IMG/VR virus record: IMGVR_UViG_2698536454_000004
Reading direction: 5' to 3' (one strand)
DNA: 25,537 nt
Origin: a virus
Taxonomy: Duplodnaviria; Heunggongvirae; Uroviricota; Caudoviricetes
Every line of letters begins with the position of its first letter. Position 1 is the first letter of the stretch. Made by a program: the position numbers. Positions 12,001-18,000 of this stretch are shown one piece after another.

Positions 12001-15000
12001 TTTGTCATGTCCACCAGCGGGACGAATGTTTTTCAGTCTTGCCACGACAGTCTGGCGGTGCAGGCCAGATAAAGCCGCCAGTTGATTAATATTCAGCACC
12101 AAGTTTTTCAACTCATGATCCATATTTCCTCCGGAGAGCTTTAAACATGCATCGTGCGAACAACTTTAAGAAAACGCGTTCGATGTCGAACAAAAACCGC
12201 TCAATTCGACATACAAAAAACAAATAACCATTAACAATCAATAATATGCAAAGATGATGGTGGCCGATAAAAATGCAAAAACTAGCCTTTTTCCGCGACG
12301 CTCCCGCCCCGTGGCAGGCCACCCCACCGGGAGGACCCGTCAGCCTGACAGCTCTGACGAACGTCTGATACAACGCCTTGCATGAATGGCATCGGGATAA
12401 TCCAGAAAGGCATAGCATCGTGCCCACAAGAATCTGTGTAAGTGTCCTGTTTCTTCCACCCACGCACAGGACTGGCGAGCATGAGGGACAAACCCGCGAA
12501 CCATAAACGCGGTAAAAACCCGGTGTGCATCGTTTTTGATTATTCCCGCACACTCGCGCAGAAGGAGTTCCCCGTCGGGCTACGGTCTCTGTTAATACGG
12601 GAATACGGCGACGATACAGCGCATGATGTGTCAGGCTTGAATACCTTTATCCGTTAAAAGGGATATCAGTTAAGCTATCCCGTGTAGGGTATAAGCCATT
12701 ATCAAAGCCACTCTGTAGGGAGTGGCTTTTGTAATGGCAATAAAAAGCCCCGCGAATGCGAGGCTAAATCCTGGTATTTGTAATGACTGGCTCTTATCTC
12801 AACGCAGCCCCTTACCGCGCGCAAGATGCTCAATATCAAGCATCAGCAATGAGATGTTTAATCTGGATTCACTCCAGAAGTGATCACCATCCTGTCTACA
12901 GAGCCAGATGTGAAGGATGATGAGTAAAATTATCGCTATCATCGAAGGCATTGCGTCCTGATGTATTCCTGAAGCGTTCTCAGTGCTGTTTGGTCGCGGA
13001 TAATTCCGTCCCGGATACCGAGAACGTTTCGTCCAGCAACTGGAGAGAGTTCGACGGTGGCATCATTGCCCATGCCGGAGGCGCTGGAGGTTTCGGCTGA
13101 GGATGGCACAGGGCATTTTCCTTTGACGAACACCCGACCACCATTATCAAGCTTGCGCCGAAGAGCATCATTTTCAGCTTTCGCATCAGCTAACTCCTTC
13201 GTGTATTTAGCATCGAGTGCATCAGCAGAACGCTGGCGCTGCTGCATGTCAGTAATGGTGGCGGTCGCCTGCTTCAGCTCACTGACTTTTTTATCTCGCT
13301 GTTCTTTGTAGGCGATGGCGTTATCACGGTAATGATTGACCGCCCACGACAGGCAGACGATGATGCAGATAACCAGAGCGGAGATAATCGCGGTTACTCT
13401 GCTCATTGTTGCCCCCACAAACAGACTTCACGCTCAATCTCACGACGAGTCATCAGGCCTTTCCATTGCTTACCGCCAGCGTATATCCAGCGACGTAGCT
13501 GGTCACATGCGCCTTTGATATCGCCCTGGTTTATTTTGCGAAGAAGCGTCGATGTTCTGAAATTGCCAGCACCCACGTTGTAGACGAACGAGTAAAGAGC
13601 GCCGCGCGTTGTTTCCGGTATATCGACTTTGATGTACGGGTTAATTTGTCTGGCAACCGTGGCAAGGTCTTTATTCAGGAGGGCTTTGCATTCTGCTTCG
13701 GTATACGTTTTACCGAGCATGATGTCTTTTCCGGTGTGTCCGTGACATACAGTCCATACGCCAACGATATCTTTGTATGGTATGTAGCTGACACCTTCCA
13801 GGCCATCGTCACCACTTGGGCCAGTGATTAACACTGATGCTATAGCAATTGCTCCGCCACCAATAGCAGCAGCAACTGCTTTTCGTAATGATGGAGGCAT
13901 TATTCACCTCTCGCAGCCTTGCGCTTATCTTCTTTAATCTTGAAATAAAGGTTTGTCAGGTACGTCAGCAGGCCAAATACCAGGCTACCCAGCACACCTA
14001 TTGCTGCCCACTGTGAGGGCGTGACTTTATCGAGCAGCTGTAAAAACCAGTAACCGGCACTACCTGCTGAGGTGCCATAGGCGACACCCGTTGTTAACTT
14101 ATCCATGGATTTCATAACCCCACCTCGCAGATGCGGGTGCTGTGTAATGGAAATAAAAAGGCCACCTGACGTGGCCACCAAATTATTTCCCCACCAGCTC
14201 GTTTATCTCTTTCACTGTCTGGTTAAACCGCTCTGACTCAAGCTCAACACCTAAGGCCCGACGCCCCAGCGCCATTGCTGCTTTTATTGTGGAACCGGAT
14301 CCCATAAAAAAATCAGCAACCAGATCACCAGGTCGACTACTGGCATTGATTATTTGCCTGAGCATATCCGCCGGTTTCTCACACGGATGTTTACCCGGGT
14401 AGAACTGAACGGGTTTATGCATCCAGACATCGGTATAAGGCACGGAGACTGATACGGAGAAATAGCGCCGGAGAGATTTAAACTCATCCAGCAATTCAGA
14501 ATATTTGCGATTCAGTGAATCATAAGATGCCACCAGCTGGTGGTGTGGTTGTTCCAGTTGTTGTTCCTGAAACTTCTCTGCCGCTATACGGGAAAACAGT
14601 GCCTGTAACTTCCGATAGTCAGCCTCATTCGGCAACTGCCACTGACTGGCACCAAACCAGTGGGAAACCATATTTTTCTTACCTGTGGCTTCGGCAATTT
14701 GTTTTGCCGTTATACCCAGTTCGGCACGAGCATCCCTGAAATACGAAATCAGCGGTGCCATTATGTGCTGTTTGAGTTCCCTTTCTTTTGCCGCATAGCC
14801 GTCACTTTTGCCGCGATATGGCCCCTGGTAATGTTCAGCAAACAGAACGCGCTCTGTGGCTGGAAAATATGCACGCAGACTTTCTTTATTACACCCATTC
14901 CAACGTCCGGACGGCTTCGCCCAGATGATATGGTTAAGCACGTTGAAACGTTCACGCATCATGATCTCAATATCAGATGCCAGGCGATGCCCACAGAACA

Positions 15001-18000
15001 GGTAAAGGCTTCCGGCAGGTTTTAACACCCGCCAGAACTGGGCCAGACAGTGGTCCAGCCACTTAAGGTAATCTTCGTCCCCTTTCCACTGATTGTCCCA
15101 GCCGTTGGGTTTCACCTTGAAGTACGGCGGATCGGTAACAATCAGGTCAATGGAATCATCAGGCAGGGACTGAATAAAATGCAGGCAATCAGCGTTGATT
15201 AAATCAACACTGTTTATTTTTACAGTATTTTTCATGGATCAGTAAGCGTAACTCTGGTAGGCTCACTCTGCTTTTGCGCTAAAGCAGTGGGCCGTGGTTC
15301 GCTTGTGACCAGTAAGCATGAGCGAATGGCTGGCAGGTGCTACCAACACCCACCAGCCGCCCATTTTCACAGCAGGAAACCGCCATTACTGGCAGCGTCT
15401 GAATTTATTCCCGTACCCGCCGTTATCCTTCGCCAGACCCGCCAGAACTAACTGAGTCAGTATTAACTGGCACCGGGCTTCGCTTACTCCGGTAGTTCTC
15501 GTCATCATGCGTGGCGTTACCCACTTGTCAGCAGGTAAGAAATGAAGGACTGCGGCGGCGGTTTCTGTCATATCTTGCTGTTTTAGCATGTCTTTTTCCC
15601 TTCTGGTTAACATGACATACCAATAACTCTTGTCTAAAAAGCCAGCAAGATAAAAAGTCAGTATTCACGACCACCAGCGTGTTTACTGTACTGCACCAAG
15701 TTTACGGGTACAAAAAACCCGCTCAGTGGCGGGTTGCTATCACAGCTATATATTTACTTATTATGCCGTTACTAACATTTATCTTCGACATATAATCGAA
15801 AACAAGGTTTGCTTAAAACTCTGCTTTCATTTTATCCGGGAATTTTTTATTTGCAGCATAATAACTACCAAGTACATAAGCGTTCATTTGCTGCTCTACA
15901 TCAACCCGACATGCCGCACTAGAACAAGCTCCACTGATAAGCCCAAAAGAACTCCCTTTAGCAGAGAGATCAGCTTTGATTTCCTCTACAGTGTTTTTCC
16001 CCATAGCAACTACACACCCTGTCACAATATATCTAGCTTTCACATCATCCATGCTAAGGATAGTAGTTTTCGCAATTTTGCTGTATCCATCATTTTTATA
16101 AACATCCATGGCAAACGCACGGCAATCTGTATAATACGGACTTGCTTTAACTTGCGAATACTCAGGTAATTTCATACCTGCACAACCAACTAAACAAAAA
16201 CCTATCGCTGCTATTAATACCTTTTTCATTACAGTCATAACCTAGAAGCATCATTGAAACTAATTTATTAAATAACCATCGAGTTTCTGGAATACAGACG
16301 TTAACCATCTCTCCAAAATCTAAAAGATAATAAGAAAAAATGTTTAACGCACCAATCCATTTCATAGTTTCATGAGACATCAGGCACAAAAAAACCCGCT
16401 CAGCGGCGGGTTTTTGACATTTACCAACGGTAGACATACAAGGCCCATCGTTGAGAAAATCTTATCCATATTTTTTGAAAAATGCAAGTATCACGTCGAC
16501 ATCTTCGGCGAAAATTATCTATCTTGTCACTTTTCTCAATTGCGATTCAGCATACGCTTCTTCCTGCCAGCACTTTGTAACCAGTTTATTAATAACGTCT
16601 GCATATCCTTTGTACCACTGATAATCCGTCAGGTCCGGTACCAGTTTCTGGACATGATGCCGCGCCAGTGTGGTTGGTAAACGGCTAAACCGGTTGCCAT
16701 TGCAACGCCCACAAATCTTATAAACAGGCACACCATGAAGCCGGGTTCTTTTTTCATCCAGGACAATACCTTTACCCTTACACCCTCTGCACGCTGTGCT
16801 GACTTCTCCCTTACCATGGCAATGCTGACATAGTTCCTTCACCCACTCTTCCTTGATAACAGATTCCCCGCTTCTGGAGTGTTTCACCACTTCGCGCAAT
16901 ACATTATGAAATCCAGTACCAGCACAATGCTCACAGCGAGCCTTACTTGCCGCAGACCTGGAATAATCAGCAAAGGCAAAATTCACAAGGTAAGGGATGA
17001 TCTGTAACCGGGTTTCTTCACTCAATTTGTTCAATGTCGGGTTATCCAGTGCCATCGCGTAATTGAGCAGACCTTCAATCGCAAATTGAGGATCCTGAAC
17101 ACCAACTTTTGCCAGGAATAAGGCAAACCCAAGCGGTGCTTTCGACTGCACCATCCCCTGCGCAGCCATCACATCCGTAATCGTTAAACCACCTGAGCCT
17201 GTCGCCGGTGCGTCATCGCTCAATTTTGGAGATTTTGGGGAGTAATATTTTGGTAAGGCTTCAAGGTTCATGCTCGTTCTCCACTTACGCCAGTACGCCA
17301 ATTGCCAGCGCACGATCGATAAAACGAAATATCAGCTCCAGCTGGGAGCCATACTTCTCTTCAAATGCCACGGTATCCGCATGCAGCTCGTCGTGATGCT
17401 TTCTGCACAAAGGCAACACAAAGAGGTCATGCGCTTTTGTACCCATTCCCCCCTGACCGTGGCCTATCAGGTGGTGGGGATCATCAGCAGGCTTTCCACA
17501 ACATGCACACGGCTGTGTCTTAACCCAGCGCGTGTACTTTTCATTAACCCAGCGGCGGCGTTTTGGGCGTAACATAAAAGACTCCGGCGACTCCGGATCC
17601 ACTTTCAGCGCCAGCACCTTTTTTGCCTTATCCTGGATGATGCTGGTGGCAGGAACCGAAGGCACAAGGTCACTTTCCCGGGTGACAGACGGCACAACAG
17701 GCTTTGGTAATCTCAGTGCCTTACGGGCTGCACTTTCCGGTAAGGCATCCGCCAGGTCATTACGAATCAGCCACCAGCACAGTTCCGGCATTGTCACAAC
17801 GTGACTATCATCAAAACCGAGATCCCGACGCACAACAGACAACACCCAGCGGGCACAGTTATCCGTTGCCATTGATTCCAGCCGTTCCGTGAACTGATCG
17901 CGCAGCTGGTTATCGCAGTGCCAGCACAGACGGATTGCGCCCGGAGCGTGTCGCATTGTGGTCATGTTCTCGCTGTGCCAGTCGGAATGAGGCCACTGGC

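Follow-up and report, generated by a model that had tools for sequence, protein, structure and literature searches.

Here, we analysed a 25,537-nucleotide (nt) stretch of DNA from a tailed phage (Caudoviricetes; IMG/VR record IMGVR_UViG_2698536454_000004; hereafter, the window), in which a gene for a DNA methyltransferase lies between the gene for the antiterminator Q and the lysis genes. Our favoured reading, which we consider likely from sequence comparison, is that this gene belongs to a late-operon module of the M.EcoGII family that depends on Q for expression, serves anti-restriction and is dosed by a leader RNA. The region 14150..15735 on the minus strand would be a conserved two-gene module that opens the late operon and consists of a small winged-helix protein, a leader of ~150 nt and an orphan methyltransferase. 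Both the membership in the M.EcoGII family and the leader RNA were missed in the initial annotation of this region, which described a moron bounded by terminators.

The methyltransferase of 350 amino acids (aa) matches PF01555 (N6_N4_Mtase; residues 29-341; E 2e-42; 145.9 bits versus a cut-off of 26.7), and contains the motifs TDPPY (motif IV; residues 34-38) and FMGSG (FxGxG, motif I; residues 310-314). Because motif IV is followed by the target recognition domain (TRD) and then by motif I, the enzyme is of the beta class. The profile match and the motif positions confirm the initial description of a 350-aa beta-class methyltransferase with TDPPY close to the N terminus and FxGxG close to the C terminus.

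Compared over its full length with M.EcoGII, the sequence of which was machine-read from the supplement of PMC11551740 (Table S1), with a few optical character recognition errors being possible (e.g. RRRA), the protein has 281/349 identical residues (80%) with two single-residue gaps, and 69 residues differ. In gap-free alignments to M.EcoGII, 60/78 residues of the TRD (residues 160-237) are identical (77%) as are 18/25 and 16/22 residues of the charged interdomain linker regions. The protein is 89% identical to the reconstructed ancestor Anc291 (310/348 residues) and 70% identical to SUPREM/Anc284 (246/350 residues). M.EcoGII from E. coli O104:H4 C227-11 (GenBank EGT69837.1) is a characterised non-specific N6-adenine methyltransferase (Murray et al. 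2018, PMC5778455) that methylates adenine in any context on double-stranded DNA, single-stranded DNA (ssDNA) and RNA. Similarly, Anc291 and SUPREM were active and largely non-site-specific when tested (PMC11551740). The closest site-specific relative, M.PflMI, has 27% identity to M.EcoGII (PMC11551740). Because the enzyme in the window is bracketed by M.EcoGII, Anc291 and SUPREM, all of which are non-specific, it is placed in the non-specific M.EcoGII family, and its predicted activity follows from this phylogenetic bracketing. A sequence search of the PDB with the methyltransferase identified no close solved relative, and the best hits were partial matches to beta-class methyltransferases (~E 3e-24).

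The enzyme is an uncharacterised member of the M.EcoGII kind, and the phages in which it occurs are known from deposited, annotated sequences. Over 13900..16300, the window shares 99% identity with the phages Ayreon (MF807953) and mEp460 (NC_019716), and in both phages the gene is annotated as "DNA methylase". Moreover, the identical protein is a multispecies RefSeq entry, and the gene is common, with matches in 1265 of the 5426 complete E. coli genomes.

In this part of the window, every gene is on the minus strand. From upstream to downstream, the open reading frames (ORFs) and elements between Q and the end of the module are as follows:
16519..17313, minus strand: Q antiterminator gene, 264 aa (PF03589 Antiterm, E 7e-54; phrog_127)
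16459..16487, minus strand: putative late promoter pR' (-35 TTGCAT at 16487-16482, 17-nt spacer, -10 TAAGAT at 16464-16459, then a CTCAACGATGGG box)
16381..16413, minus strand: tR', predicted intrinsic terminator (hairpin 16412-16389 and U-run; fold and Ayreon annotation)
15813..16238, minus strand: AT-rich lipoprotein-like ORF, 141 aa, lipobox LVGC (phrog_4748; no Pfam match)
15712..15735, minus strand: second predicted terminator, a repeat of the tR' hairpin (scan and fold), at the left edge of the conserved methyltransferase module
15386..15589, minus strand: small winged-helix ORF, 67 aa; the longest ORF reaches 15613 (75 aa) (phrog_331; predicted structure)
15379..15396, minus strand: P0 hairpin, GCUGCCA-GUAA-UGGCGGU (fold and covarying pairs)
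15227..15376, minus strand: structured 5' leader RNA of the methyltransferase (covariance model R1 and covariation counts)
14183..15235, minus strand: beta-class methyltransferase assigned to the M.EcoGII family, 350 aa (PF01555; identity to M.EcoGII)
14150..14176, minus strand: predicted intrinsic terminator after the methyltransferase (scan and fold; Ayreon annotation)

The 130 nt after Q align with pR' of phage lambda (NC_001416), and the promoter elements compare as follows:
-35 element: TTGCAT in the window, TTGACT in lambda
-10 element: TAAGAT in the window, TAAATT in lambda
Downstream box: CTCAACGATGGG in the window, CTCAACGATGGG in lambda

In lambda, this box holds a promoter-proximal pause element. 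In the window, tR' folds with -17 kcal/mol (z -3.3), is homologous to the late terminator of phage N15 and is annotated as a terminator in Ayreon. In the absence of Q, termination at tR' would give an RNA of ~70 nt from 16381..16487, which we take to resemble the StxS-type small RNA of Shiga toxin (Stx) phages.

In a scan for terminators, a 5-kb region contained 12 terminator-like sites compared with 4.2 +/- 1.7 in shuffled sequences, and the two hairpins that bracket the module were the second and third entries. The upstream hairpin (15735..15716, followed by TTTTTTG) folds with -13.3 kcal/mol (z -1.95); the downstream hairpin (14176..14160, followed by TTTTTATTT), which starts 7 nt past the stop codon of the methyltransferase gene, folds with -19.8 kcal/mol (z -4.87). 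The authors of the Ayreon sequence annotated terminators at both positions. Thus, the module is bracketed by predicted intrinsic terminators as originally reported. The upstream one (15712-15735) repeats the tR' hairpin in direct orientation, with identity at 23/24 positions over 24 nt and unrelated flanks.

The initial annotation took this layout to imply a separate transcription unit. Between 15712 and 15236, a scan for the sigma-70 consensus identified no site above chance, the sole promoter candidate being a 9/12 match within the small ORF; the counts in the scan equalled the expectation from shuffles (7 versus 7.3). Moreover, homologues of the methyltransferase are reported to be silent in lysogens: M.EcoGI and M.EcoGII gave no methylation in their native lysogen and slowed growth upon expression (PMC5778455), M.EcoMV, which is 99% identical to M.EcoGI, was not transcribed as determined by reverse transcription PCR, and the O111 homologues had no methylation signature (PMC4659465, PMC6602927). 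The lack of a promoter above chance, the copying of tR' in the upstream terminator and the reported silence of homologues argue against a separate transcription unit.

A pR'/tR'-type terminator directly precedes the leader and the methyltransferase gene in Kosakonia (L026), in N15 and in about a dozen other loci, including several Enterobacter, Trabulsiella and Kluyvera loci. Similarly, the gene order in the Stx2a phage Stx2_14040 is Q, small ORF, methyltransferase, tRNAs and stx2AB; therefore, the late transcript must traverse the methyltransferase module to reach stx. In total, the tR' copy upstream, the lack of a promoter above chance, the simpler relatives, the order in the Stx phage and the reported silence in lysogens support, as the simplest reading, that the methyltransferase gene is expressed late and in dependence on Q, with terminators insulating it.

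The two copies of the tR' hairpin (16389..16412 and 15712..15735) flank the lipoprotein ORF. While the G+C content of the methyltransferase module is 46-51% and, thus, like that of Q and the lysis genes, it is 35-39% in the region of the lipoprotein ORF. Because of this G+C content and its location between two copies of tR', the lipoprotein ORF is a moron by composition. In phage cdtI and others, which are without the lipoprotein ORF, homology to the window sets in precisely at 15735. Altogether, it looks as if the lipoprotein ORF is the real moron and was inserted at tR', and the upstream terminator belongs at least as much to this ORF as to the methyltransferase module, which itself looks like a core accessory module and not a recent insertion.

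We examined homologous loci in a scan of a genome collection with one genome per species. At least three families of Q precede the methyltransferase (PF03589 as in the window, PF06530/DUF1133 in Salmonella and others), and in 40 of 70 species-level loci, the ORF that comes first after it encodes a holin, with six Pfam families of holins represented. Thus, phages whose Q and holin families are unrelated have the gene in the same conserved position, between pR'-tR' and the lysis genes. In the Xenorhabdus and Photorhabdus loci (L052..L084), the gene immediately after the methyltransferase encodes a Tad2-like protein (PF11195; Thoeris anti-defence) in 10 of the 70 species-level loci and a DUF7823 protein in 7, which hints that this site collects counter-defence genes.

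The module also varies in its relation to stx. The whole module is kept upstream of stx in Stx2c phages, Stx1a phages and some Stx2a phages. By contrast, 933W-like Stx2a phages (e.g. ArgO145, L005 3001..3105) contain only the last 34-50 codons of the methyltransferase gene, between Q and the tRNA-stx2 cassette; this 3' remnant suggests that the stx cassette displaced most of the gene. For N15, the annotation of gene 52 begins at 41621; however, both the frame and the homologous stretch extend to an ATG at 41387, giving a protein of 363 aa (NC_001901 41387..42478; L004 3001..4092). This full-length N15 protein belongs to the M.EcoGII family (55-56% identity) and has the same leader and no small ORF.

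The spacer between the small ORF and the ATG of the methyltransferase gene is 147-154 nt long, is conserved in length and sequence in Enterobacteriaceae, Erwiniaceae and Morganellaceae, and is present in a diverged form in Gilliamella and N15. This leader is more conserved than the proteins that flank it, i.e. identity is down to 41% for the small ORF and is 56-61% for the methyltransferase. A degenerate pattern of the leader matched at least 119 viral contigs and, among the matches listed, a methyltransferase homologue was present within 250 nt after the leader in 118 of the 118 viral contigs with downstream room. The covariance model R1, built from the leader alignment, identified a sole copy in the window (15227..15376; 162.5 bits; E 1e-37), and also matched N15 (69.5 bits) and Gilliamella (about 60 bits); the short leaders of Xenorhabdus and Photorhabdus escaped it. 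In the latter genera (among L052..L084), a different and shorter leader is present about 76-101 nt upstream of the methyltransferase ATG, and in many of these loci, a terminator-like hairpin with a subsequent U-run separates the small ORF from the methyltransferase gene.

The conserved pairs of the leader fit two folds. For the fold that we refer to as state A, pairs were counted in 52 distinct leaders, aligned with MAFFT independently of any structure. State A consists of a three-way junction and a hairpin with the helices P1 (UGGGC/GCCCA; 15363-15359 paired with 15292-15288), P2 (~11 pairs), P3 (CGCU/AGCG) and P4 (UGCUUU/AAAGCA). In this state, 87.9% of cells were paired compared with 27-45% in slid controls and 18 pairs were changed on both sides compared with 5-10, with similar results in a first alignment. 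All cells of P1 were paired (100%), with Mixta and Gilliamella having compensatory changes, and the first pair of P3 was C-G in 21, A-U in 12 and U-A in 10 leaders.

In the alternative state B, the loop and the 3' arm of P3 (GRUCA.AAGCG, 15310-15300) pair with CGCUU..UGAUC at 15248-15237, i.e. at positions -13 to -2 from the methyltransferase AUG, which lacks a Shine-Dalgarno sequence. This sequestor helix was 91.4% paired compared with 19-42% in slid controls, and five pairs were changed on both sides. Two further helices of state B, GGCCCAC/GUGAGCC and AUGGGCG/CGCUCAU, were 81.8% paired with three pairs changed on both sides and 94.5% paired, respectively. States A and B are mutually exclusive and iso-energetic in the window (-56.3 and -56.5 kcal/mol; unconstrained minimum -56.9 kcal/mol). 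Because G-U pairs are frequent, the structure is tied to the mRNA strand.

Because one of the two folds pairs positions -13 to -2 before an AUG without a Shine-Dalgarno sequence, we propose a role in translation and regard the leader as a candidate bistable translational leader dedicated to the toxic methyltransferase. More tentatively, and at slightly less than an even chance in our estimate, the leader could be an undescribed bistable riboregulator in which the three-way junction frees the start region, the other fold blocks initiation, and an effector picks the fold and in this way doses the methyltransferase. Candidate effectors are S-adenosylmethionine (SAM) and S-adenosylhomocysteine (SAH), the methyltransferase itself (possibly via N6-methyladenine in the leader), the winged-helix protein, and the co-transcriptional kinetics of the Q-modified polymerase.

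Nearly all leaders have a GATC sequence (Dam site) 2-5 nt before the methyltransferase ATG (15237..15240 on the minus strand of the window). It belongs to the proposed sequestor pairing, and could also have a role at the level of DNA.

Several other explanations for the leader were tried and rejected. A hidden peptide encoded by a 35-aa ORF (15263..15370) was discarded: most relatives have an in-frame TAG after seven codons, indels in loops shift the frame, and the substitutions compensate in the RNA and are not conservative in the protein. Apart from a single pair in a single sequence, the helix AUCAG/CUGAU had no changes on both sides. Inspection of the variants did not support pairing between the P3 loop and GUGAGCC, and the junctions (0, AUU, AACCAAG) do not fit the hammerhead core in length and sequence. 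A search of the whole window against Rfam 15 (4227 families) at gathering thresholds gave no hits. With E up to 10 in 15150..15800, there was no match on the minus strand of the leader, and the other matches were at chance level: a match to STnc130 at 15608..15744 on the plus strand, opposite to the late operon, is full-length and overlaps the terminator hairpin, and is probably due to chance (26 bits versus a gathering threshold of 55; E 0.12), and the matches to Trp_leader and isrK fall on the hairpin of the terminator. In the literature searched, neither the leader sequence nor a description of EcoGII in a lambdoid late operon was found; the anti-sRNA paper (PMC4104026) and the work on the Pas sRNA describe other elements.

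The small ORF that was initially reported upstream of the methyltransferase gene is present, at 15386..15613 (75 aa) in its longest form. Because homologues are conserved from MLKQQDMTE on, and the same start is annotated in Ayreon and mEp460, translation more likely starts at the ATG at 15589 to give a protein of 67 aa. Searches of Pfam, NCBIfam and PADLOC with this protein returned no match, and its match to phrog_331 is to a family of unknown function. An AlphaFold model built on an alignment of 20 sequences (mean predicted local confidence, pLDDT, 87) has the topology helix-helix-helix-strand-strand. The best fold matches in the PDB are Zalpha domains (template modelling (TM) score 0.83; root-mean-square deviation 1.1 A; 16% identity), followed by IclR-, TrmB- and Rrf2-type domains and the RNA-binding domain of SelB, with 10-26% identity across all matches. 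Thus, the small protein is modelled as a winged helix. We do not claim a link to Z-DNA, as the likeness to Zalpha domains is at the level of the fold (TM score 0.83; 16% identity). By the winged-helix model and the lack of a Pfam or NCBIfam match, it is not an Xre-type C protein.

Among the matches listed, the small ORF is directly upstream of the methyltransferase gene in 109 of the 118 viral contigs. Similarly, it is present in 65 of 91 methyltransferase-bearing sequences (90 loci and the window) with a near-constant spacer, and is absent from N15 and about 14 genome loci that retain the leader and the methyltransferase gene. We conclude that it is a frequent yet dispensable partner of the methyltransferase. 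The stop codon of the small ORF is in the loop of the P0 hairpin, the pairs of which covary across relatives (helix 1). P0 is present in 82 of 88 distinct upstream contexts and is terminator-like, with a T-rich tail (>=5 of 8), in 39 of the 88; in the window, the U-tail is weak. Translation of the small ORF may possibly be coupled to read-through of P0.

No gene for a restriction endonuclease was detected with Pfam and PADLOC among the neighbours of the methyltransferase gene (the winged-helix ORF, the lipoprotein ORF, Q and the holin) or among the early-region ORFs (KilA-N, RusA, a LexA-like DNA-binding protein, a PerC-like protein, a replication protein, CII and CI), and none is annotated in Ayreon. 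Because a restriction gene is absent, the region is not a restriction-modification system and, within the window, the methyltransferase is an orphan, in agreement with the initial annotation. The second methyltransferase reported there was also recovered: a Dam-type enzyme is encoded at 19808..20494, with matches to PF05869 (E 1e-45; 155.7 bits versus a cut-off of 28.1) and TIGR01712 (E 2e-76; 255.3 bits versus 97.05). This early-operon enzyme probably adds a second, GATC-type modification. Of the two functions initially suggested, i.e. anti-restriction self-protection and epigenetic control, anti-restriction is the best functional reading of the sequence comparisons and the literature on homologues, and we suggest that the methyltransferase module probably serves this purpose.

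In the mechanism that we propose, transcription of the module would require that RNA polymerase, modified by Q and coming from pR', passes tR', the copy of tR' and the terminator-like P0 hairpin, and the stacked terminators would silence the toxic enzyme in the lysogen. With Q-dependent read-through being needed, the stacked terminators would keep the enzyme off and not delimit an independent unit. After induction, the leader would set the level or timing of translation, and the enzyme would methylate adenine at N6 in essentially any context, as do M.EcoGII and the tested ancestors. Replicating phage DNA would be heavily methylated before packaging, and the progeny would evade many host restriction systems at the next infection. 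Broad escape from restriction by such methylation was proposed by Murray et al. (PMC5778455).

Several observations weigh against this reading. The non-specificity of the enzyme is a prediction from phylogenetic bracketing, and 18 of the 78 TRD residues differ from M.EcoGII. The promoter scan covered the sigma-70 consensus, and a weak, atypical or activator-dependent promoter would escape it. The downstream terminator is not universal; a crude scan identified one in 30 of 78 loci. In the leader, the changes in the state B helix AUGGGCG/CGCUCAU are one-sided only, several helices vary little and, because the leader sequences are related, the excess over shuffles does not amount to a probability. 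Finally, hypermethylated virion DNA of these phages was not reported in the literature searched.

Alternatively, the module could be an autonomous moron as initially annotated, i.e. a terminator-bounded unit with its own promoter that is expressed in the prophage for epigenetic control, with the small ORF as a C-protein-like regulator. Two elements of this description stand: the site downstream of pR' is the classical insertion site of morons (PMC4104026), and a terminator follows the gene; moreover, the small ORF, a predicted winged helix and hence potentially DNA-binding, is tightly linked to the methyltransferase. However, a promoter was not found in the sigma-70 scan, with promoter-like sites not above chance, and the composition is not foreign, with a G+C content matching the rest of the phage. 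Also, homologues are reported to be silent in lysogens, the upstream terminator duplicates tR' and is at least as much a part of the lipoprotein ORF, the gene directly follows pR'-tR' in simpler phages, and the methyltransferase and leader exist without the small ORF, which is not an Xre-type C protein. We consider an autonomous moron improbable, and equally so that the enzyme is a sequence-specific orphan adenine methyltransferase of the Dam/CcrM kind, in which substitutions in the TRD restored a target and which confers protection or regulation through one specificity. The 18 differing TRD residues, the RefSeq name "site-specific DNA-methyltransferase" and the site specificity of M.PflMI, the nearest family outside the clade, would fit such an enzyme; on the other hand, the protein lies inside a clade of non-specific enzymes with 70-89% identity to it, M.PflMI is at 27% identity to M.EcoGII and lacks the charged linker, which aligns without gaps here, and the RefSeq name is a generic automatic label.

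It is even less probable that the substrate is RNA or ssDNA, i.e. late mRNAs, host RNAs or packaging intermediates, with the leader as a substrate-like autoregulatory site that refolds upon adenine methylation. M.EcoGII methylates ssDNA, RNA and DNA:RNA hybrids in vitro (PMC5778455; PMC11551740), and the module has a dedicated bistable leader with conserved A-rich junctions; however, the activity of M.EcoGII on RNA is ~100-fold below that on DNA (Supplementary Table S3, PMC11551740), and anti-restriction accounts more simply for the wide distribution and the late timing. Somewhat less remote, and still unlikely in our view, is that the leader is not regulatory, with its conservation stemming from recent horizontal spread and its covariation from phylogenetic noise or remnants of a terminator or attenuator. 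In favour of this, the module is highly mobile, as is evident from the matches in 1265 of 5426 complete E. coli genomes, many helices are invariant, and the shuffle controls ignore relatedness. By contrast, the leader is more conserved than the flanking proteins (41%; 56-61%), its stems compensate in Proteus, Morganella, Gilliamella, Mixta and N15 while the junctions are fixed, the slid controls, in which relatedness is kept, are far lower, the structure, because of its G-U pairs, applies to the mRNA strand only, and the in-frame ORF across the leader is broken in most relatives.

With M.EcoGII as well as M.EcoGI, the enzyme shares 80% full-length identity including the TRD and the charged linker, the order of DPPY and then FxGxG, the orphan status and the location in a prophage, and a homologue in a Stx2a phage that is 93% identical to M.EcoGII has the same small ORF, leader and post-Q position as in the window. 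Unlike M.EcoGII, the allele in the window is known from sequence alone; in turn, the published work on M.EcoGII describes no placement in the pR' late operon, no leader RNA and no small partner ORF. Similarly to the T1/VT2 Dam family and Dmt of P1, the enzyme is phage-encoded, has no restriction partner and is presumed to protect progeny DNA, and the promiscuous alpha-class enzymes of Drozdz et al., as cited in PMC5778455, are also phage orphans with a presumed anti-restriction function. The enzyme in the window differs from these orphans in being of the beta and not the alpha class, in being predicted to have no defined target and in its location in the late and not the early operon.

The module shares the zone from Q/pR'/tR' to the lysis genes with the cargo of lambdoid phages at pR' (stx, bor/lom-type morons and anti-sRNAs; PMC4104026) and, as for stx2, its expression would depend on read-through by Q. 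It differs from this cargo in having a native-like G+C content and in being the first late gene in many phage lineages, with stx cassettes located downstream of it or replacing it (3' remnant in 933W-like phages). The leader resembles SAM, SAM-II and SAH riboswitches and the leaders of erm methyltransferase genes in being conserved and having multiple helices, stems that covary, junctions with fixed nucleotides and a second, alternative fold in which the translation start is occluded; in contrast to these, it matches none of the 4227 Rfam families (E up to 10), and a leader peptide is not conserved. As in restriction-modification systems controlled by C proteins, the gene just upstream of the methyltransferase encodes a small, putatively DNA-binding protein; however, there is no restriction gene, the predicted winged helix is not an Xre-type helix-turn-helix, and the leader and methyltransferase exist without the small protein. 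Compared with the papers that we read, two points appear to be new, i.e. that the family is the first gene of the pR' late operon across differing Q and lysis modules, and that it has a dedicated structured leader.

Q is upstream of the module and the lysis cassette (12939..14115) is downstream. The remaining features are as follows:
13900..14115, minus strand: holin of the phage 21 type (S21) (PF04971)
13403..13900, minus strand: lysozyme (PF00959)
12939..13418, minus strand: Rz (PF03245)
19808..20494, minus strand: second methyltransferase, of the phage Dam type, in the early (nin) region (PF05869, TIGR01712)

The lysis cassette resembles that of phage 21 at 13403..14115 (minus strand), where the S21-family holin starts with MKSM, possibly a dual start, and the hydrophobic N terminus of the lysozyme is similar to that of a signal-anchor-release endolysin. 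A scan of the window for tRNA genes identified none. Just upstream of Q, at 17285..18280 (minus strand), a 331-aa DUF968 protein is encoded that has a weak HNH-like region (PF16784), recurs in the corresponding position of Salmonella prophages and has the annotation HNH endonuclease in mEp460; there is no sign that it partners the methyltransferase.

M.EcoGII is a workhorse for mapping chromatin and protein-DNA contacts (MadID, BIND&MODIFY and long-read footprinting), while its natural biology is barely described. The placement of the gene in the late operon behind stacked terminators and a leader would account for how phages can bear an enzyme that is harmful to the host. In Stx1a, Stx2c and some Stx2a phages, stx comes directly after the methyltransferase gene; therefore, the late stx transcript of these phages includes the leader and the terminators of this gene. 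If regulatory, the leader would be a new RNA control element, and a handle or a nuisance in the expression of these enzymes. Finally, the proposed mechanism predicts that the virions of many lambdoid, N15-like and Stx phages hold heavily adenine-methylated DNA, which would bear on restriction evasion, on host range in phage therapy and on the analysis of phage DNA by nanopore or single-molecule real-time sequencing.

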